From contig CAJTYF010000005.1 in assembly GCA_910583945.1 (NCBI GenBank), forward strand, positions 1,402 through 65,401: 64,000 nt of DNA, given 5' to 3'. The position numbers and the translations under genes were made by a program. Shown one piece after another: positions 3,049 to 32,695 of this stretch; the first letter of the stretch is position 1; each line of letters starts with the position of its first letter. The notes below the pieces were generated by a model that was not told the DNA's origin, ran no database searches, and was given only the letters and a program-made list of their open reading frames with translations. Origin of the DNA: an uncultured Bacilli bacterium. Lineage in GTDB: Bacteria > Bacillota_I > Bacilli_A > RF39 > UBA660.

Positions 3049-3707
3049 AAATTGATATTTTAACTTTATTTCCAGCGATGTTTGATGGTTTTTTAAATGA
3101 ATCCATTATTAAAAGAGCACGAGAAAAGAATTTAGTGGAAATTCGTATTATTAATTTTAGAGATTTTTCAGAGCTATCTAATCATCAAGTCGATGATACG
3201 CCTTATGGAGGCGGTGGTGGAATGGTTCTTCGTTGTGAACCTTTAGTCTGTGCCATTGAAAACCTTCGAACTCCAAAAAGTAAGGTTATCCTAATGTGCC
3301 CACAAGGAAAAAGCTTTAAAGAATCTTACGCTCAGTCTTTAGCTTTGGAAAAACATCTTATTTTGGTGTGTGGTCATTATGAAGGCTTTGATGAACGCAT
3401 TCGAGCATTTGTGGATGAAGAAATTTCGATTGGGGATTATGTATTGACGGGAGGAGAACTTCCAGCTATGGTGATTACTGATGCCATTACACGTCTACTT
3501 CCGGGAGTGATAAAAAAAGAATCATGGGAACAGGAATCCTTTCAAGAAAATTTACTAGATTATCCTACGTATACGAAACCAAGTGTGTTTAGAGGGTTAA
3601 AAGTACCAGAAGTTTTATTGAGTGGGGATCATAAAAAGATAAAAGAATGGCGTTATCAAGAGCAAGTCAAAAAAACAAAAGAAAAAAGAAATGATCTTTT
3701 AAAGTAA
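3045..3707 (+). CDS. trmD: tRNA (guanine37-N1)-methyltransferase TrmD
   Basis: 'IDILTLFPAMF', 'DDTPYGGGGGMV', 'CGHYEGFDERI' and 'SIGDYVLTGGELPAMV' are all canonical TrmD blocks. Confidence 0.95.
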   Translation: MKIDILTLFPAMFDGFLNESIIKRAREKNLVEIRIINFRDFSELSNHQVDDTPYGGGGGMVLRCEPLVCAIENLRTPKSKVILMCPQGKSFKESYAQSLALEKHLILVCGHYEGFDERIRAFVDEEISIGDYVLTGGELPAMVITDAITRLLPGVIKKESWEQESFQENLLDYPTYTKPSVFRGLKVPEVLLSGDHKKIKEWRYQEQVKKTKEKRNDLLK

Positions 3708-6268: not shown

Positions 6269-6972
6269 AAAGAGATTATTTTATATCCGTTGCCATGGCT
6301 ACTTATAATGGCGAAAAATATATTAAAGAGCAATTGGAATCTATTTTACTACAATTAGAGAATCAAGACGAAGTAATTGTCTCTGATGATGGTTCTACTG
6401 ATCACACTTTAAAAATTATTGAATCTTTAAATGACCAAAGAATTAAAATTCTTAAAGGGCCACGAAATGGAGTGAAACAAAATTTTGCTCATGCTCTTTC
6501 CTTTTGTAAAGGAAAATATATTTTTTTGTCTGATCAAGATGATATTTGGTTAGAAAATAAAGTTAAGCATGTATTAACTTGTTTTGAAGAAAAAAAATGT
6601 GATTGTATTACCCATAATTGTGATGTTGTCAATTCTAATCATTCTGAAGTATTGATTGAAAGTTTTTTTGATTATAGAAAGTCTACACCTGGCATTTTAT
6701 CTAATATTTATAAAAATAAGTATTTAGGTTGCTGTATGGCTTTTAAAAATGAAATGCTTAAATCTATTTTGCCTATTCCTAATTCAATCGAGATGCATGA
6801 TCAATGGATTGGGCTTATATGTGAAAAGTTTGGTACCTCTATTTTTCTAGATAAAAAGCTTATTCATTATAGAAGACATGATGATAATGTTTCTCAGATG
6901 AAACATTATCCTTTGTTAAAAATGATAAAAAATAGAGTAGTCTTAATTCAACAATTTATAAAAAGAAGGTGA
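6265..6972 (+). CDS. GT2-family glycosyltransferase
   Basis: 'ISVAMATYNGEKYIKEQLESILLQ', 'VIVSDDGSTD' and 'FLSDQDDIW' (DxD) are typical GT-A family 2 motifs. Confidence 0.85.
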   Translation: MKRDYFISVAMATYNGEKYIKEQLESILLQLENQDEVIVSDDGSTDHTLKIIESLNDQRIKILKGPRNGVKQNFAHALSFCKGKYIFLSDQDDIWLENKVKHVLTCFEEKKCDCITHNCDVVNSNHSEVLIESFFDYRKSTPGILSNIYKNKYLGCCMAFKNEMLKSILPIPNSIEMHDQWIGLICEKFGTSIFLDKKLIHYRRHDDNVSQMKHYPLLKMIKNRVVLIQQFIKRR

Positions 6973-26512: not shown

Positions 26513-27118
26513 ATGAAAGTAAATTATGATGTTTTAATGCAAAAAGAAATTGAAAAATTTCAAGGTAAAAAAAAGCTTTTATTGCATAGTTGTTGTGGAC
26601 CTTGTTCTTCGGCGGTTATTTTGAGATTAAAGGAATATTTTGATATTACGATTCTTTATTACAATCCTAATATCGAACCTGAAGAGGAATATATTAAAAG
26701 AAAAAATGAACAAAAAAAATTACTTGATGCTTTAGATTTGGGGATTACACTTAGAGATATTGATTACGATCATGACTCTTTTTTAAAAGTTTCTAAACAT
26801 TTAGAAACAGAACCTGAAGGTGGAGCAAGATGTCATAAATGTTATTTTTTAAGGTTACAAAAGACAGGAGAAATCGCTAGAAAAGAAGGTTTTGACTATT
26901 TTGGCACGACTTTAACGGTCAGCCCTTATAAAAATAGCGATGTAATTAATTCAATGGGATTATTGATTGAAAAAGATATGAATTTTGATATTCGTTTTTT
27001 GGTTTCAGATTTTAAGAAAAGAGAAGGCTATAAACAAAGTATTGAACTTTCTGAAAAATACCATTTATATCGTCAGGATTATTGTGGTTGTTTATTTGCA
27101 AAAGATGTCGATTCTTAA
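26513..27118 (+). CDS. queH: epoxyqueuosine reductase QueH (DUF208)
   Basis: 'LLLHSCCGPCSS', 'YNPNIEPEEEY', 'RCHKCYFLRL', 'TTLTVSPYKN' and 'YRQDYCGC' are the conserved Cys-containing QueH blocks. Confidence 0.9.
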   Translation: MKVNYDVLMQKEIEKFQGKKKLLLHSCCGPCSSAVILRLKEYFDITILYYNPNIEPEEEYIKRKNEQKKLLDALDLGITLRDIDYDHDSFLKVSKHLETEPEGGARCHKCYFLRLQKTGEIARKEGFDYFGTTLTVSPYKNSDVINSMGLLIEKDMNFDIRFLVSDFKKREGYKQSIELSEKYHLYRQDYCGCLFAKDVDS

Positions 27119-27265
27119 GAAAAGATGTCTTTTTTTAGTGTATTTTGGTATTTATAATTGATATAATTTGACATGACACGACAAAATGGTACATATTATT
27201 CGTGAAATGACTTTCCAAAAAATATTTACTATAATCTAGTTATAGTAGGAGGAGTCATAGGAAAT

Positions 27266-28396
27266 ATGAAATTAGAGAAGTTTACAAAAGGTAGTAAAAA
27301 AAGAAGTCAGGCTGTTATTTTTTTCGCTATAGCGGTTTGTTTGCTAGCGGCAGGATTTATTCTTTATCGAACGTTTGCGTTTTATGAAGAAAAAAGAGAA
27401 TTTAATGTTTTGCAAGGAAGGATTGGAGATTTTGATTATGATGTAAAGCTTGCAATAGTGGTTGATGGAGAAAAAGTAGATAAAGTACCTGAACGTGGTC
27501 TTTATAGTGTAGTAAGTACATGTAATGAAGGAGAAGCTTCAACTTGGGATTATAATGCTTGGGCACTATCTATAGAAAATATTCAAACGAATACAAAGTG
27601 TAAGGTTACTTTTACTTCAGGACTCAGTGATACAGAGTATAATAAATACATCGAAGCTGGAATTGCATTAAGAAGAAATACGTATCGAGGAAAAGATATC
27701 ACTAGTTATTATAATGATGGAAGTCTTTATACCATGATCAGTGATGGAACGTTTAAAGATATTTATGTAGGGGATTTTTTTAATGTCAATGGCGTAACAT
27801 GGCTTGTTGCGGACATCGATAATTATTTGCATAGTGGAGATCAAGATTTAACGAAACATCATGCAACGATTATCCCAGCAAAGCCATTAATGAATTTGGG
27901 AATGAATGAAACAGATACCACAGAAGGTGGGTATTATAATAGTAGAATGGCTCAAGAAACCTTACCGAGTCTAGTGGCGGCTGATGGAACAATTGGAAAA
28001 GCTTTCGGTGCTCATTTAATCGAGTATCGTAATCTGTTATCAAATCGAATTAATAAAGATACCATTAATCAAAGTGGAGGAAGATGGGTTGGAGCAAGTG
28101 ATGAATGGGGATGGTATTCAAGAAAAGCTGATTTAATGAGTGAAGTGAATGTCTATGGAACAACAGTGTGGTCATCAAGTGGCTATGATATAGGAATAGA
28201 TAATCGTCAGTATGCAATTTTTCAACTAAAACCAGAGTATATTAATAGTTATGGGACAGCAAGATTTCATTATTGGTTAAAAAGTGTCTCTGGTGCGACT
28301 AGGTTTGCTCATGTCGCCGGTAACGGGAATTCCGGCTACACCTGGGATGGCGCGTCCAACGCGTATGGTGTTCGCCCCCGCTTCCTGATCGGTTAA
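27266..28396 (+). CDS. DGR target (variable) protein: N-terminal signal-anchor, C-terminal C-type-lectin-like variable region
   Basis: TM helix 'AVIFFAIAVCLLAAGFILY'. The C-terminus 'YWLKSVSGATRFAHVAGNGNSGYTWDGASNAYGVRPRFLIG' is encoded by the VR, which matches the three downstream template repeats. Confidence 0.85.
   Translation: MKLEKFTKGSKKRSQAVIFFAIAVCLLAAGFILYRTFAFYEEKREFNVLQGRIGDFDYDVKLAIVVDGEKVDKVPERGLYSVVSTCNEGEASTWDYNAWALSIENIQTNTKCKVTFTSGLSDTEYNKYIEAGIALRRNTYRGKDITSYYNDGSLYTMISDGTFKDIYVGDFFNVNGVTWLVADIDNYLHSGDQDLTKHHATIIPAKPLMNLGMNETDTTEGGYYNSRMAQETLPSLVAADGTIGKAFGAHLIEYRNLLSNRINKDTINQSGGRWVGASDEWGWYSRKADLMSEVNVYGTTVWSSSGYDIGIDNRQYAIFQLKPEYINSYGTARFHYWLKSVSGATRFAHVAGNGNSGYTWDGASNAYGVRPRFLIG
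28285..28379 (+). repeat. DGR variable repeat (VR)
   Basis: 95 nt align without gaps to 29692-29786 (TR3). There are 12 mismatches, and 10 of them sit at template adenines. The homology core 'tctctggtgcgact...gcgtccaacgcg.atggtgttcgccccc' is shared with all three TR copies. Confidence 0.9.
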
Positions 28397-28434
28397 TCCT
28401 CAAATCTGACCCCCTTGTGGGGTCTTGAGGATTA
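28394..28434 (+). promoter_or_regulatory. nested GC-rich hairpin immediately 3' of VR (candidate DGR target-recognition cruciform and/or attenuating structure)
   Basis: 10-bp outer stem (taatcctcaa at 28394-28403 pairs with ttgaggatta at 28425-28434). 6-bp inner stem (gacccc at 28408-28413 pairs with ggggtc at 28419-28424) with a 5-nt loop. It starts at the stop codon. No T-run follows. Confidence 0.6.
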
Positions 28435-28455
28435 AAAAGAGAAGGAGGAATTTTG

Positions 28456-29016
28456 ATGAGTGTTGTAAAAAGTAAAAGAAAGCTTTCAACAATGGAGTTT
28501 TTTCATAACGCTCTTTTGTTAAGAAAGAGCGTTACGGAACTTTTGATGCGTGATTTCGGTGTAAAAGGATTCAAGCGAAATATCAAATTTGTAGGAAGTG
28601 TTGAACATTTTGAACCAGAAGATAAAATATTGGTGGAAGAAGTGTTTGAAAAATACAATATGGGTAGATGTTTTGAAGATGAATATCCTGAGTGGTTGAT
28701 TGATAAAGAAAGAGTTTATTTTTTGGATATCTTGCGAAGCTTGATAAAAAATATTGTAAAAGCGAATACAATTTATCCGGTTAATATGAATGAATATAAA
28801 GAAAGAAGAAGTTATCAAAATAATGCCATTGGGGATTGTGAAGATCTTCTTCAAGAAATGCAATATATGATTTCAATTGTTCCAGTCGATGCTGAAAAAT
28901 ATATGCAATATGTAGAAATGATTGAAAAAGAAATTGCTCTTTTGAAAGGGTGGCGAAAAGGAGATAATAAAATTGCCAGTCGATTAGAAAAGAAAAAAGA
29001 AGAGTCGAAAGACTAA
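28456..29016 (+). CDS. avd: Avd-like accessory variability determinant (basic four-helix-bundle-type protein), unusually long
   Basis: Lies between the target and the TRs. Lys/Arg-rich, predicted all-helical. Strong RBS 'ggagg' 8 nt before the ATG at 28456. The assignment rests on context plus composition, not on a motif I can name. Confidence 0.6.
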   Translation: MSVVKSKRKLSTMEFFHNALLLRKSVTELLMRDFGVKGFKRNIKFVGSVEHFEPEDKILVEEVFEKYNMGRCFEDEYPEWLIDKERVYFLDILRSLIKNIVKANTIYPVNMNEYKERRSYQNNAIGDCEDLLQEMQYMISIVPVDAEKYMQYVEMIEKEIALLKGWRKGDNKIASRLEKKKEESKD

Positions 29017-29039
29017 AAATTTGTGGTATGTAGTAGTGG

Positions 29040-29095
29040 TAATCCGTTTCAAAAATATATGAATTAAGTATAATTCAATTTGATACGGATTTTTT
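29040..29095 (+). terminator. long AT-rich hairpin plus T5 after avd (possible terminator or 5' structural part of the DGR RNA)
   Basis: aatccgt (29040-29046) pairs with acggatt (29084-29090). An inner tgaatt/aattca stem is present. Followed by ttttt at 29091-29095. Confidence 0.3.
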
Positions 29096-29132
29096 GTGTT
29101 CAAAAATATTGGATAAAATTTGTAATCTTGGT

Positions 29133-29227
29133 TGTCTCTGGTGCGACTAGGTTTGCTAATGTCAGCGATAACGGCAATTCCAACAATGGCTGGAACGCGT
29201 CCAACGCGAATGGTGTTCGCCCCCCCC
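29133..29227 (+). repeat. DGR template repeat copy 1 (TR1)
   Basis: Shares both ends with the VR. AAY-rich core 'aatgtcagcgataacggcaattccaacaatggctggaacgcgtccaacgcgaat'. One codon shorter than VR/TR3. Ends in C8. Confidence 0.8.
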
Positions 29228-29413
29228 TGATTCGATATGTTCATAGATAGTAAGACTACGAGTCGATATGAAAATATGGAAGGAAATTTTATCCATCCGA
29301 AAGGTAAAAATAAATTTTGATGTTACTAGATACGTCTAGGGTAACTAAAAACAAAATTGATGGAAGATATATTAGTTTTTTTATAGATGTTGGGTAAAGC
29401 TTGTATAGCTTAG

Positions 29414-29506
29414 TGTTCTCTGGTGCGACTCAGTTTGCTAATATAGGCGGTTGGGGTGATTCCAATAACAACTGGAGCGCGACCAACGCGAATGGTGTTC
29501 GCCCCC
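29414..29506 (+). repeat. DGR template repeat copy 2 (TR2)
   Basis: Core 'aatataggcggttggggtgattccaataacaactggagcgcgaccaacgcgaat'. The most divergent copy. One codon shorter than VR/TR3. Ends in C5. Confidence 0.75.
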
Positions 29507-29691
29507 TGATTCGATATGTTCATAGATAGTAAGACTACGAGTCGATATGAAAATATGGAAGGAAATTTTATCCGTCCGAAAGGTAAAAATAAATTTTGAT
29601 GTTTTTCTAAATACGTTTAGGAACTGTTTACAAAATAATAAAATGGATTGTTATATTAGATAAATTATGGGTAAAATTTGTAATATTGCTT

Positions 29692-29787
29692 TGTCTCTGG
29701 TGCGACTAGGTTTGCTAATGTCAACAGTAACGGTGATTCCAACAACAACTGGAATGGCGCGTCCAACGCGAATGGTGTTCGCCCCCC
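29692..29787 (+). repeat. DGR template repeat copy 3 (TR3), best cognate of the local VR
   Basis: Same length as the VR. Core 'aatgtcaacagtaacggtgattccaacaacaactggaatggcgcgtccaacgcgaat'. By hand count, 10 of its 22 adenines are substituted in the VR. Ends in C6. Confidence 0.9.
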
Positions 29788-29955
29788 TGATTCGATATGT
29801 TCATAGATAGTAAGACTACGAGTCGATATGAAAATATGGAAGGAAATTTTATCCATCCGAAAGGTAAAAATAAATTTTGATGTTACTAGATACGTCTAAG
29901 GTAACTAAAGACAAAATTAACTTAATAAATTAAGAGTTTTAAGTAGAATAGATGG

Positions 29956-29998
29956 TGAATTAAGATTTCTTTTTCCACGCAAATGAAATCTTAATTCA
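29956..29998 (+). promoter_or_regulatory. perfect 14-bp inverted repeat (15-nt loop) between the last TR cassette and the RT start
   Basis: tgaattaagatttc (29956-29969) pairs with gaaatcttaattca (29985-29998). No T-run follows. Located 62 nt upstream of the RT ATG. Confidence 0.5.
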
Positions 29999-30060
29999 AC
30001 ACCTCATATCTTGACTTTGCCTCTTTTCTACTCAAAAGTTTTAATAAAAGGTGAAAGATT

Positions 30061-31248
30061 ATGAATAAAGAAATGAAAATTTTAAGTGATGCCAATCAAT
30101 TGATTGAAGCTTTTAATCAAACTAAAAAGGAAAGTATATGGAAAGAATCTGTACAAAATTATGAAGCCAATTTACTTCGAAATACTTACTTACTAAGAAC
30201 GAGTTTAAGAGATGGGACCTATAGACAAAGAGCCTTTTATGAGTTTACTTTAAATGAAAGAGGTAAAACAAGATATGTGAAATCTATGCATATTACTGAT
30301 CGAGTTGTTCAAAGGAGTTTATGTGATAATATTTTGATTCCTAGACTTCAAAATTATTTGATTTATGATAATGGAGCGAGTCTTAAAAATAAAGGGATTG
30401 ACTTTTCTAGAAAACGATTGGAGACACATTTGCATCGTTTTTATCGAAAAAATGGAAGTAATGAGGGCTATGTTTTACTAATTGATTATAGTAAATTTTT
30501 TGATAATATTCGACATGATAAATTGGCGGAGCTTTTAGAAAAGAAGATTGATTCTCCTGAATTTATGACATTTGTGAAGCAGCTTCTTAAGACCTTTTCT
30601 ATTGATGTGTCTTATTTATCTGATGAAGAATATAAAAACTGTCTAAATAAGCTCTATAATTCTTTGGAACATTCAAAAATTGACCGAAGTTTATTAGTTG
30701 GAGAAAAAATGATGGAAAAGTCAGTAGGAATTGGAAGTCAAATTTCTCAAATATGTGGTATTTATTATCCAACAAGAATTGATAATTATTGTAAAATTGT
30801 TAAGGGCATGAAATATTATGGAAGGTATATGGATGATGTTTACGTAATTCATAAGGATAAAGAGGTATTAAAACAATTATTAAAAGAAGTGGATGAATTA
30901 TCTAAAGAATTAGGATTGTTTATTAATCAGAAAAAAACACAAATTGTTAAATTAAGACATGGTTTTACTTTTTTTAAAATTAAATATAATTTAACAGAAA
31001 GTGGGAAAGTTTTAAAACGATTAGTACCAAAAACCATTACAAGAGAAAGACGGCGACTTAAAAAGTATAAAAAATTAATGGAAGAAGGGAAAATGAGTTA
31101 TAAAGATATCGAACTTGCTTATAAGTCTTGGCGAGGAAATGCTTTAAGGTATCATGCTTATACGAGTGTTAAAAATTTAGATGCTTTGTTTGACCAACTT
31201 TATGTAAAAGAATGGAAAGGAAAGAATGAAGATGAGCTTACTTTATGA
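30061..31248 (+). CDS. DGR-type reverse transcriptase
   Basis: RT motifs 'LLIDYSKFFDNI', 'SVGIGSQISQICGIYY' (the DGR-specific I/LGxxxSQ block), 'GRYMDDVYVIH' (YxDD) and 'GLFINQKKTQIV'. RBS 'aaaggtga' before the ATG. Confidence 0.95.
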   Translation: MNKEMKILSDANQLIEAFNQTKKESIWKESVQNYEANLLRNTYLLRTSLRDGTYRQRAFYEFTLNERGKTRYVKSMHITDRVVQRSLCDNILIPRLQNYLIYDNGASLKNKGIDFSRKRLETHLHRFYRKNGSNEGYVLLIDYSKFFDNIRHDKLAELLEKKIDSPEFMTFVKQLLKTFSIDVSYLSDEEYKNCLNKLYNSLEHSKIDRSLLVGEKMMEKSVGIGSQISQICGIYYPTRIDNYCKIVKGMKYYGRYMDDVYVIHKDKEVLKQLLKEVDELSKELGLFINQKKTQIVKLRHGFTFFKIKYNLTESGKVLKRLVPKTITRERRRLKKYKKLMEEGKMSYKDIELAYKSWRGNALRYHAYTSVKNLDALFDQLYVKEWKGKNEDELTL

Positions 31249-31591
31249 TCAATATCAAAATTTAAAAGAGAGAGATAAAGACACTTATTATTTGTTTCGA
31301 AGTGGGAATTTTTATATTTTTTTAGGAGAGGATGCAGATCGTATTAACCAGTTTATGGTTTTAAAACGAACACCTTTTTGTAAAGAAACTATAAAATGTG
31401 GTTTTCCAGTAAGAAGTTTAGAGGCCTATTTAAAAGTTTTTAAAAATCATGGTCTTACGATTCGAGTTATTGAAAAGGAGGAAAAAAAGAGTATTGAACC
31501 CATTCTTAAAGATTTAAAAAAGTTGGATATTGAGGCGATTACTCCAATTAAAGCTTTAAATATTTTGAAAGAAATTAAAGATTCGCTTTAA
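31226..31591 (+). CDS. stand-alone MutS domain I-like (mismatch-binding N-terminal domain) protein, DGR accessory candidate
   Basis: 'YDQYQNLKERDKDTYYLFRSGNFYIFLGEDADRINQFM...KCGFPVRSLEAYLKVFKNHGLTIRVIEK' aligns by eye with the MutS N-terminus ('[34 protein letters not shown]...[28 protein letters not shown]'). Overlaps the RT gene by 23 nt. Confidence 0.7.
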   Translation: MKMSLLYDQYQNLKERDKDTYYLFRSGNFYIFLGEDADRINQFMVLKRTPFCKETIKCGFPVRSLEAYLKVFKNHGLTIRVIEKEEKKSIEPILKDLKKLDIEAITPIKALNILKEIKDSL

Positions 31592-31610
31592 TTAAAGGGA
31601 AAGTTTTATA

Positions 31611-31638
31611 AAAAGGCTTGCTCGCAAGTCTTTTTTTT
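31611..31638 (+). terminator. rho-independent terminator closing the DGR operon
   Basis: aaaa-ggcttg-ctcg-caagtc-tttttttt: a 6-bp stem (one G-U pair), a 4-nt loop and a T8 run. Confidence 0.75.
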
Positions 31639-31765
31639 GCTAAAATACAAGTGGCTAAAAAATTAGCAAATAAACATGTGAAAGGGATTAAAGTTATCGA
31701 GTGCCGAAGAGGTGATAGGTTTAAGAAGATCTTTTACAGATGTATAACGAAGGGAGAAATGATTT

Positions 31766-32695
31766 ATGGCCGTTGTTTCTATGGGATATTTATTAGAAGC
31801 AGGAGTTCATTTTGGACATCAAACCAAAAGATGGAATCCAAAAATGAAGCAATATATTTTTGCAGCAAGAGATGAAATACATATTATTGATTTACAAAAA
31901 ACAGTAGAAAAATTAGAAGAGGCGTATGCCGAAGTTAAGTCTATTGCAGATAATGGAGGTACTTTCTTATTTGTAGGGACTAAAAAGCAAGCCAGTGAAG
32001 TATGTAGTGAAGAAGCGATTCGTAGTAATAGTTACTATGTTTGTGAAAGATGGCTTGGTGGAACTTTAACAAATTTTAGAACGATTAGAAGAAGAGTAAA
32101 ACGTCTTGAAGAAATTGAAGCAATGGAAACAAATGGTGTTTTCGAAGTTTTACCGAAAAAAGAAGTTATTGGTTTAAAGAAGGAATATGATAAATTAAAC
32201 CGTGTGTTATGTGGTATAAGAGAAATGAATAAATTACCACAAGCGATTATTATTGTGGATCCTAAAAAAGAAATTAATGCAATAAGAGAAGCTAGAAAAT
32301 TAAATATACCTGTTTTTGGTATAGTGGATACGAATTGTGATCCAGATGATGTTGACTATCCGATTCCAGCAAATGATGATGCAGTTCGAGCTGTAAAAGT
32401 CGTGATTGGTGTTTTAAACAATGCGATTTGTGAGTCAAGAGGACTTGAAATGGTTGATTATGTAACCGAAGATGATAAGAGCAAATCTGTGACTTCTATG
32501 CCAACTGATATATCTGTTAAACCTACTAAAGAAGAAAATGGAGAAAAAAAGGTTCGTAAAGAACAAGAAAATACTTCTAAAGAAAAAGATTATGAAAGTT
32601 TAAATTTATCTGAACTTAAAAATATAGCTCGTGAACAAGGTGTTAAGGGTTATTCTACAATGAAAAAAGAAGAAATTATTAGTCAATTAAAATAA
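31766..32695 (+). CDS. rpsB: 30S ribosomal protein S2 with a C-terminal Rho_N/SAP-like extension
   Basis: '[19 protein letters not shown]', 'FVGTKKQA', '[10 protein letters not shown]' and 'VDTNCDPD' are canonical S2. About 75 extra C-terminal residues end in '[31 protein letters not shown]'. Confidence 0.95.

Follow-up and report, generated by a model that had tools for sequence, protein, structure and literature searches.

A Chromosomal Diversity-Generating Retroelement Whose Tandem Template Cassettes Appear to Rewrite a Single Variable Region in an Uncultured Gut Bacilli Bacterium

Organization of the Locus

We describe a diversity-generating retroelement (DGR) in a 64,000-nucleotide (nt) stretch of DNA from an uncultured Bacilli bacterium (GenBank assembly GCA_910583945.1, contig CAJTYF010000005.1, positions 1,402 to 65,401 of the forward strand). 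The whole of this stretch was analysed and is called the window below. The element consists, in this order, of a target gene that ends in a variable region (VR), an Avd-like accessory gene, three tandem template cassettes, each with a template region (TR), a reverse transcriptase (RT) gene and a MutS-like (MSL) gene (Table 1). Taken as a whole, our explanation, in which we have high confidence, is that an uncultured gut Bacilli bacterium of low GC content carries a DGR in its chromosome, that TR3 templated the VR in the window, and that, as the comparison of strains indicates, several cassettes rewrite this one VR.

Table 1. Positions of the genes, repeats and boundary elements of the retroelement in the window
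Feature	Position	Strand	Description
Target gene	27266..28396	+	376 amino acids (aa); open reading frame (ORF) with N-terminal membrane anchor, beta-rich ectodomain and C-terminal variable region
VR	28285..28379	+	95 nt
3' boundary resembling an initiation of mutagenic homing (IMH) site	28366..28396	+	GC-rich TGGTGTTCGCCCCC, then VR-specific GCTTCCTGATCGGTTAA; the TRs have CTGATTCGATATG (IMH*-like)
Inverted repeat (hairpin or cruciform)	28393..28436	+	directly after the VR and the stop codon
Avd-like accessory gene	28456..29016	+	186 aa; predicted four-helix bundle with N-terminal extension
Cassette 1	29093..29358	+	leader (helix arm 29111-29121), TR1 29133-29224 (92 nt), spacer (helix arm 29284-29294)
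Cassette 2	29372..29637	+	leader (helix arm 29392-29402), TR2 29417-29506 (90 nt shared, 3 nt shorter than the VR), spacer (helix arm 29563-29573)
Cassette 3	29653..29925	+	leader (helix arm 29669-29679), TR3 29692-29786 (95 nt), spacer (helix arm 29844-29854); cognate template of the window VR
DGR-type RT gene	30061..31248	+	395 aa; Pfam RVT_1, E = 1.8e-15
MSL gene	31232..31591	+	119 aa; MutS domain I only; overlaps the RT stop; Pfam MutS_I, E = 1.7e-12

Sequence comparison points to an RT of the DGR type. The best match in the PDB is 8ub7, a 328-aa reverse transcriptase (E = 2.9e-14), which ranks ahead of retron and group II RTs. The alignment sets IGSQISQ over IGSLTSQ and RYMDDV over RYMDDI, that is, it contains both the IGxxxSQ motif 4 and the YxDD box. 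The accessory protein has no family match by sequence in Pfam, NCBIfam or the PDB. Its AlphaFold2 (AF2) model, with a predicted local distance difference test score (pLDDT) of 84.5, has a C-terminal four-helix bundle, for which Foldseek ranks highest 2gsc and 2rld, of the S23/IVP family, and 4dwl, the Avd of a Bordetella phage, with probabilities of 0.99-1.00, E-values of 0.03-0.3 and target-normalised TM-scores of 0.6-0.8.

The MSL gene adjoins the RT gene in every related locus and encodes 119-121 aa; its TIGR01070 match is limited to residues 7-86. MutS domain I is a mismatch-binding domain, and the MSL protein may have a role in protecting or processing the heteroduplex between complementary DNA (cDNA) and target DNA. 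A DGR survey describes MSL proteins as an accessory class (Wu et al. 2018, PMC5758913). With a MutS-domain-I protein beside the RT, together with an Avd-like gene, the locus would by its gene content belong to the MSL-containing subclass of DGRs.

The element lies between queH and rpsB in a genome of about 29% GC with a strong strand bias. Upstream of it are mraY, murG, ftsQ and queH, and downstream are rpsB, tsf and frr. A blastn search of the locus against 50,697 phage records gave no match. Because of this result and the conserved chromosomal neighbours, we regard the element as chromosomal; a phage origin was considered and rejected on the same grounds.

Adenine-Specific Mismatches between the Variable Region and TR3

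We compared the VR with TR3 without gaps over their 95 nt. The two differ at 12 of the 95 positions, and ten of the 12 mismatches lie opposite an adenine of TR3. Given the base content of TR3 (22 A, 25 C, 25 G and 23 T), the hypergeometric probability of at least ten of 12 mismatches falling on adenines by chance is 3.2e-6. Ten of the 22 adenines are rewritten, and all three other bases are used (A to G five times, A to C three times, A to T twice). The direction from TR to VR is clear because only a single mismatch has its adenine on the VR side. The VR is read in the frame of the target ORF and ends 15 nt before its stop codon. In this frame eight codons are changed, seven AAY and one AGT (N>H, N>A, S>G, N>G, N>Y, N>T, N>D and N>Y). 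The two other mismatches are adjacent: the VR has G at 28327 and A at 28328 where TR3 has T and G (GGG AAT versus GGT GAT). The homology between VR and TR3 ends abruptly at both sides. The end motifs common to VR and TRs occur four times in the window, as one VR and three TRs, and no further VR was found there within three mismatches of either end motif.

A sequence-only reading of the stretch had listed these 12 mismatches, ten of them at TR3 adenines, with ten of 22 adenines changed to all three other bases and the codon series N,N,S,N,N,N,N,N turned into H,A,G,G,Y,T,D,Y; recomputation gave the same positions, counts and codons in the target frame. It had also pointed out the adjacent pair outside adenines and the AAT of TR1 at this place, and TR1 does read GGC AAT there. 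The enrichment test that it proposed for adenine sites is the one given above.

The reading of the VR as a DGR variable region written from TR3 by adenine-specific mutagenesis is fully supported: by the mismatch statistics, the DGR-type RT, the Avd-like and MutS-like genes, the IMH-like boundary with its hairpin, and the population data. That the pattern reflects chance divergence of ordinary direct repeats has next to no probability; nothing speaks for it except that the repeats exist, the adenine statistics rule it out both in the window and pooled over nine alleles (P = 1e-56), and a complete set of DGR genes adjoins the repeats. The adenine-specific pattern is a textbook hallmark of DGRs and alone identifies just another DGR.

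Localized Hypervariation among Strains

Related loci, designated by L numbers, allow the VR to be compared among strains. The window is identical to an ENA contig of run ERR3199594. The 90% protein cluster of the target has members of 374, 375 and 376 aa, which differ almost only in the VR. We took nine VR alleles, that of the window and eight further ones for which the DNA was obtained, and compared each with the templates of its own locus. Changes are found at 99 of 183 template adenines versus 18 of 630 other template positions (Fisher P = 1e-56), and most of the non-A differences are crowded at the very 5' edge of the VR.

Four loci, L015, L018, L130 and L131, have identical template arrays and agree at all of the 1020 nt that precede the VR; for L015 and L018, whose downstream sequence was also compared, the 650 nt that follow are free of differences as well. 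In contrast to these flanks, 11-30 of 93 columns differ between the VRs of the four, and the columns concerned are overwhelmingly those of template adenines. The core of TR2 is identical in all strains while the VRs vary. The sequence-only reading had named two outcomes that would speak against it, one and the same VR in every isolate or variation that affects A and non-A positions equally, and the strain comparison gave neither. It supports a process of diversification that would be at work in vivo.

A few details of these VRs and of one excluded contig may be added. The invariant Trp codon of the templates is changed at non-A positions in two independent alleles, to AGG in L015 (VR column 58) and to TTG in L131 (VR column 59). 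A change of GGT to GAT at codon 3 recurs in L015, L130 and L132; it probably was resident in the gene as a polymorphism, on the 5' side of the tract that is usually converted. The contig L014 (target protein P0014) was left out: it has 2.4x coverage, its VR has an AT-rich 3' end that lacks both IMH and hairpin, and the genes beyond are unrelated. The target gene of L014 is identical in its 5' part; its VR 3' end (region 3440-3620) reads GGGGTTCGTCCTAGATTTTTAATTGGATGA, and a 615-aa protein and an SNF2 helicase follow, with no DGR. L014 is probably an assembly chimera or a paralogue, or it may be a strain that lost the element.

Alternate Templates and Chimeric Variable Regions

The template arrays differ among strains. 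The window has T1, T2 and T3; L009 has T2 and T3'; L013, L015, L018, L130, L131 and L132 have T4 and T2; and L012 has T4 followed by the end of the contig. T4 occupies the position of T1; it measures 89 nt and can be told by its distinctive codons CGC, ATT and CGT.

The VRs differ in template type as well. Those of the window and L012 are 95 nt long and of T3 type. In L018, L131 and L132 (T4 and T2 in the array) the VR has 92 nt and shows the markers of T2, namely CAG/CGG, ATA GGC GGT TGG and ACC. With the same array, L130 has an 89-nt VR with the T4 markers CGC and ATT and without the T4 codon CGT 3 nt further on. Because L130 received ATT and not CGT, the 3' boundary of transfer would lie inside the GC-rich block, as in the Bordetella phage BPP-1. 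TR2 is the template of the L018, L131, L132 and L015 VRs; in L009 and L013 it templated the 3' half of the VR.

The VRs of L009 and L013 are chimeras. In L009 the 5' half has the marker of the strain's own T3' (GGC instead of GTC) and the 3' half has T2 markers; in L013, T4 in the 5' half is joined to T2 in the 3' half. Any single template leaves 4-8 non-A mismatches or gaps in these two VRs, and two templates leave 1-2. The junctions fall in 8-11 nt of shared sequence, GGTGATTCC. In BPP-1, at least 8 bp of identity suffice for 5' cDNA integration (PMC3240598), and by analogy the junctions of L009 and L013 fit this rule. Both halves of each chimera carry A-specific changes relative to their own templates, which favours mutagenic retrohoming over plain DNA gene conversion.

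We classed the remaining cluster members by a protein-level reachability test. Class T2 holds five proteins of the cluster and P0043 from a neighbouring cluster of 87% identity; class T3 holds three, among them the excluded P0014; class T4 holds P0011 and, from the 87%-identical neighbouring cluster, P0044. Two are mosaic, P0015 by the reachability test and P0005 from its DNA (L009). Class T1 is empty.

Two to three tandem cassettes thus appear to take turns or to combine in rewriting the single VR of one surface protein. In its full form, which we regard as somewhat more likely than not, the proposal is that of a multi-template DGR: two to three self-contained template RNAs with differing scaffold codons and lengths all home to one VR, and the cell switches framework and loop length (89, 92 or 95 nt) and builds chimeras by partial conversion or template switching.

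The VR classes and chimeras could in principle have come from homologous recombination or gene conversion of DNA, from exchange between strains or from faulty assembly, without reverse transcription. The VR and the TRs share ends of 25-30 nt as well as internal identities, so RecA-type conversion is conceivable; VR-like TRs (L023) suggest some flow from VR to TR; and the data are all short-read metagenome assemblies. We consider this quite improbable nevertheless. Conversion alone would copy the adenines unchanged, and both halves of the chimeras carry A-specific changes. An import from other strains is opposed by the flanks, which are identical among strains with different VR classes. Assembly chimeras are unlikely because the junction identities are shorter than the k-mers of assemblers and because each allele recurs in 2-4 independent assemblies.

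TR1 and TR2 might instead serve remote VRs of their own, one TR per VR, or be dead duplicates. The multi-TR DGRs described so far pair each TR with its own VR (PMC6642488; PMC12386605), and relatives hold several to dozens of target paralogues per genome. Still, we judge this unlikely. The local VR in sister strains is TR2-, T4- or T3-type or chimeric, with strain-specific template markers, and the paralogues in the sister genomes L024, L044 and L085 are AT-rich at their C-termini, without a GC-rich IMH or hairpin. Decay is opposed by the spacer, which is essentially invariant while the TR cores differ.

Several points weigh against the interpretation of the locus as a multi-template DGR and have to be set beside it. 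No TR1-derived VR was seen among the VR alleles and cluster members examined, which also suits the idea of remote VRs (T4, the positional allele of TR1, is used in L130), and the view is limited to 64 kb of the genome, with room elsewhere for remote VRs of TR1 and TR2. Two of the 12 mismatches between VR and TR3 lie off adenines. The three-cassette array rests on one assembly, and the comparative data are short-read metagenome assemblies or metagenome-assembled genomes (MAGs). The likeness of the accessory protein to Avd is one of predicted fold with weak E-values, and the fold of the target has no solved relative. Finally, the VR allele of the window is identical in three samples (ERR3199594, ERR3199695 and SRR27143818), the last with four single-nucleotide polymorphisms in the 6 kb downstream; a VR allele is stable within a strain.

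In most strains (L013 at 6365-6375; L015-L021; L130-L133) T4 has, near its 5' end, a deletion of 1 nt, GTCTTTG-TGCG as opposed to GTCTTTGGTGCG in L012. This deletion would frameshift the target if it were transferred. The T4-derived VR of L130 does not have it, which places the 5' integration in L130 downstream of the deletion.

The Two Mismatches outside Adenines

We scored the VR against each TR with differences at adenine sites free of charge, and used dynamic programming with template switches allowed. TR3 leaves two non-A mismatches and no gap, TR1 leaves six and a 3-nt gap, and TR2 leaves 11 and a 3-nt gap. Run over all three templates, dynamic programming returned TR3 alone with its two non-A mismatches; a 5' part of TR1 joined to a 3' part of TR3 also leaves two (AGC>GCC and GGC>GGG).

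From the pair at 28327-28328, where the VR codon AAT equals that of TR1, the sequence-only reading had drawn a hint of mosaicism with another template copy or of template drift. Mosaicism between template copies is real in the sister strains L009 and L013 but is not supported for the window VR: no mosaic path gets below two non-A mismatches, and a TR1/TR3 mosaic was rejected because it brings no gain in parsimony. There is very little likelihood that the pair is a TR1 patch (GGC AAT) inside a TR3-derived VR. The VR codon AAT does equal that of TR1, and mosaic VRs do occur in sister strains. However, a C>G non-A mismatch would remain and two template switches would be needed, and each mosaic observed in nature has just one junction, 3' of which the second template begins; an internal patch is not among them.

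The other half of the hint, drift, fits better. Drift of template or VR after the last homing is favoured because 28327-28328 are columns where TR alleles differ (T3 GGT GAT, T4 GGC GAT, T1 GGC AAT), and such later drift would most likely account for both mismatches. One specific form of it seems to us evenly balanced between true and false: the VR was written from an earlier TR3 allele, and TR3 or the VR changed later at these positions, possibly through adenine mutagenesis of a template that read GGA AAT. All four states, including GGG AAT of the VR, can be reached from GGA AAT by A>N changes alone. Moreover, the templates of the relatives L022, L023 and L102 look adenine-mutagenised or VR-like, and 30 of the 42 substitutions between the window TRs have A on one side. 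On the other hand, a GGA AAT allele was not observed among the TR alleles, the T3' allele of L009 reads GGT GAT as well, and an ordinary point mutation of the VR or a rare non-A misincorporation by the RT gives the same picture.

Template Cassettes

The three tandem units are about 280 nt each and consist of a leader, a TR (92, 92 and 95 nt) and a spacer of about 140 nt. All carry the 5' and 3' ends of the VR. The first approximately 98 nt of the spacer are essentially invariant across the cassettes, and the TR cores have 9-18 differing positions and a codon indel. Each TR is bracketed by the arms of a putative 11-bp helix between leader (GGRTAAARYTT) and spacer (AARYTTTATCC). Two pairs of this helix covary, one from T-A to C-G in L023 and L102, and one from A-T to G-C in L102. 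Cassette 2 of the window has one C.A mismatch in the helix, with a "GC-type" leader and an "AT-type" spacer, and looks like the product of unequal crossing-over between cassettes. Folded as a whole, a cassette RNA is no more stable than shuffled sequences (z = -1.3); within the cassette RNA structure covariation backs the leader-spacer helix alone, with few divergent spacers found. In BPP-1 the core DGR RNA comprises 20 nt upstream, the TR and a 140-nt spacer, all required for cDNA synthesis (PMC6182149), and by this layout each cassette looks like a complete template RNA unit. A search of 27000-32000 against Rfam returned nothing relevant. A promoter and terminator scan gave promoter-like sites before cassettes 1 and 3, no more than in shuffled sequences, and no terminators.

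Arrays of at least two cassettes were found only in the species cluster of the window (RT 87-100% identical; L009-L021, L102 and L130-L133). L102, with an RT of 94% identity, has at least three cassettes, and the sister species L023 (RT 86% identical) has one. Logan contigs from independent assemblies of the window's strain (L002-L006) always break in the TR array: one contig stops in TR1, and the sequence resumes 192 nt ahead of the RT. With broken assemblies of this type, automated surveys for DGRs would miss or miscount cassettes.

Templates of relatives show peculiarities of their own. The sole TR of L023 (6790-6880) is adenine-poor and has two differences from its VR, both at TR adenines. 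The first TR of L022 (6865-6960) and a TR of L102 (108-190) resemble adenine-mutagenised T3 and T4. Templates may be rewritten too, by self-homing or by conversion from VR to TR, and the templates of a multi-template DGR may evolve by the same adenine mutagenesis.

A run of C at the junction of TR and spacer (29217-29228, 29499-29507 and 29779-29788) has eight, five and six C in the three cassettes of the window. In T2 of L009 it has four C, and the window VR has five C and then G. T2 has the shortest run and is the most used template. It is tempting to speculate that the length of the run might tune how often each cassette is used, as cDNA synthesis or 3' integration should start there.

Target Protein, Boundary and Hairpin

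The target protein has no match in sequence searches of Pfam, NCBIfam and the PDB. Its 482 homologues all have a variable C-terminus that ends in an invariant RPRFL. The AF2 model (pLDDT 77.8) has an N-terminal hydrophobic helix (residues 9-40) and a beta-rich body. Foldseek relates this predicted fold to predicted phage receptor-binding and DUF6273 proteins, with E-values down to 4e-23, and against the PDB it returned only noise, with no match to a solved structure.

The GC-rich block TGGTGTTCGCCCCC is common to the VR and all TRs. Beyond it, the VR continues with GCTTCCTGATCGG and the TRs with CTGATTCGATATG, an arrangement that by sequence resembles an IMH/IMH* pair. The hairpin after the stop codon has a predicted DNA folding energy of -16.2 kcal/mol (z = -4.7), and none of 200 shuffled sequences is as stable. 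It is kept in all strains and in the sister species L022 and L023, with changes in the loop only. For retrohoming in BPP-1 the target must have an IMH that includes a (GC)14 element and, next to it, a hairpin or cruciform, a structure that occupies the same position as the one described here (PMC3240598).

In a scan of species-representative genomes, the target family was found in MAGs of uncultured Bacilli and "Tenericutes" from mouse and rabbit gut, and some related MAGs have dozens of paralogues per genome. This is so in Bacilli MAGs from rabbit and mouse gut (L025-L101, e.g., CANPZX01 Lapin-002 bin30 and CANQDC01 Lapin-005 bin63). Many of these paralogues lie at contig ends, as if the assemblies break at repeated VR-like sequence, and fragments of Avd or RT are found near paralogues in a few of the MAGs (L028, L031, L057 and L077). 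They represent either a multi-target DGR system on a massive scale or the fossil remains of a large family. One homologue, P0096 (434 aa; columns 470-535 of alignment A2), has two tandem variable C-terminal modules, the first ending in GVRPRFLIG and the second in GVHPRFLIG.

Comparison with Known Retroelements

By every sequence-level criterion testable here the locus is a DGR. The closest point of reference is the DGR of BPP-1 (mtd with its VR, avd, TR and brt). Both have the order target with VR, accessory gene, TR and RT; both have adenine-specific differences between TR and VR in AAY codons, with the VR at the 3' end of the target; both have a GC-rich IMH-type boundary followed by a hairpin (PMC3240598); the template unit is laid out like the core DGR RNA (PMC6182149); and the RT in the window aligns to the 328-aa RT of 8ub7, including IGxxxSQ and YMDD. 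The two elements differ in that ours is chromosomal rather than phage-borne, has three tandem cassettes instead of one and includes an extra MutS-like gene. Its accessory protein, of 186 aa and with an N-terminal extension, has no sequence similarity to Avd, and its target is membrane-anchored with a DUF6273-like predicted fold, for which the PDB comparison gave no match to a C-type lectin fold like that of Mtd.

MSL-containing DGRs, e.g., that of Legionella, likewise have a small MutS-domain-I protein beside the RT and an avd-type gene (PMC5758913). In that survey neither "two TRs" nor "multiple TRs" occurs, and the sole passage with "TRs" concerns remote targets. A term search of this survey and of a second one (PMC8144416) gave nothing on multiple TRs.

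DGRs with more than one TR per RT are on record. The DGR of Stenotrophomonas sp. SKA14 has two TRs and six VRs (PMC6642488), and that of the zeta crAss-like phage Lera has TR1-3 with VR1-3 (PMC12386605). There each TR has its own VR or VRs, whereas the window holds one VR in 64 kb, with 89-, 92- and 95-nt forms and chimeras across strains. In the 64 kb and the strains compared, our locus does not conform to the type with one cognate VR per TR: the window has a single VR-like sequence, and the same VR is of T2, T3 or T4 type across strains.

Two further systems are instructive. The DGR of Treponema denticola (TvpA; PMC4891356) is also chromosomal and host-associated, with TR types that differ between strains and VRs that vary within the species. 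Its TR variants, however, are alleles that different strains carry, each element having one TR and many remote targets, whereas in the window divergent TRs stand in tandem. Relatives from the human gut (L103-L128, RT approximately 46% identical) share the RT lineage and the gene order, and their 12-23 mismatches between TR and VR are nearly all at TR adenines. Unlike our locus, each has a single TR and a single VR, and among the 19 TR/VR pairs 13 are without any non-A mismatch.

We found no report of several TRs serving one VR in the literature searched, which is no proof of novelty. Relative to that literature, a tandem multi-template DGR with alternation of templates and chimeric VRs would be new, and the mismatch pattern was already known.

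Proposed Mechanism and Implications

From the mismatch statistics, the gene content and the strain comparisons, which are direct observations, we infer the following mechanism; for its RNA intermediate and for the way in which priming and integration take place, BPP-1 serves as the analogy. A template RNA made up of leader, TR and spacer would be closed by the helix between leader and spacer. The RT and the Avd-like protein would copy it into cDNA, misincorporating opposite the adenines of the template, and the cDNA would replace the target gene's 3' end. On the 3' side the replacement would stop in the GC-rich IMH-like block next to the DNA hairpin, and on the 5' side it could stop at any short stretch of identity. 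The VR of the window would be the product of one or several TR3-templated events that changed ten of 22 adenines in eight Asn or Ser codons. Different cassettes would rewrite the same VR, and partial conversions would give rise to chimeric VRs.

To our knowledge, in every characterised DGR diversity is limited to the adenines of one template, and the other residues and the loop length are fixed. A multi-template DGR, if this is indeed what the locus encodes, would reach sequence space that is closed to adenine mutagenesis of a single template. The template array would add a combinatorial layer (choice of scaffold, choice of length, and chimeras). In concept such a layer has more in common with antigenic variation from cassettes, or with V-gene choice, than with simple hypermutation. 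The locus is also a natural test of where 5' cDNA integration occurs in the wild and of whether an RT-Avd pair can use several template RNAs in cis. The compact "core RNA" cassettes of about 280 nt could be copied directly into DGR systems engineered for mutagenesis where more than one programmable template is needed; other DGRs have already been reconstituted in E. coli (PMC12875486).

Other Observations

Downstream of the element, the gene of ribosomal protein S2 (31766-32695, + strand) encodes 309 aa, with a C-terminal extension of approximately 80 aa. In the precomputed Pfam annotation of related contigs this extension is Rho_N-like.

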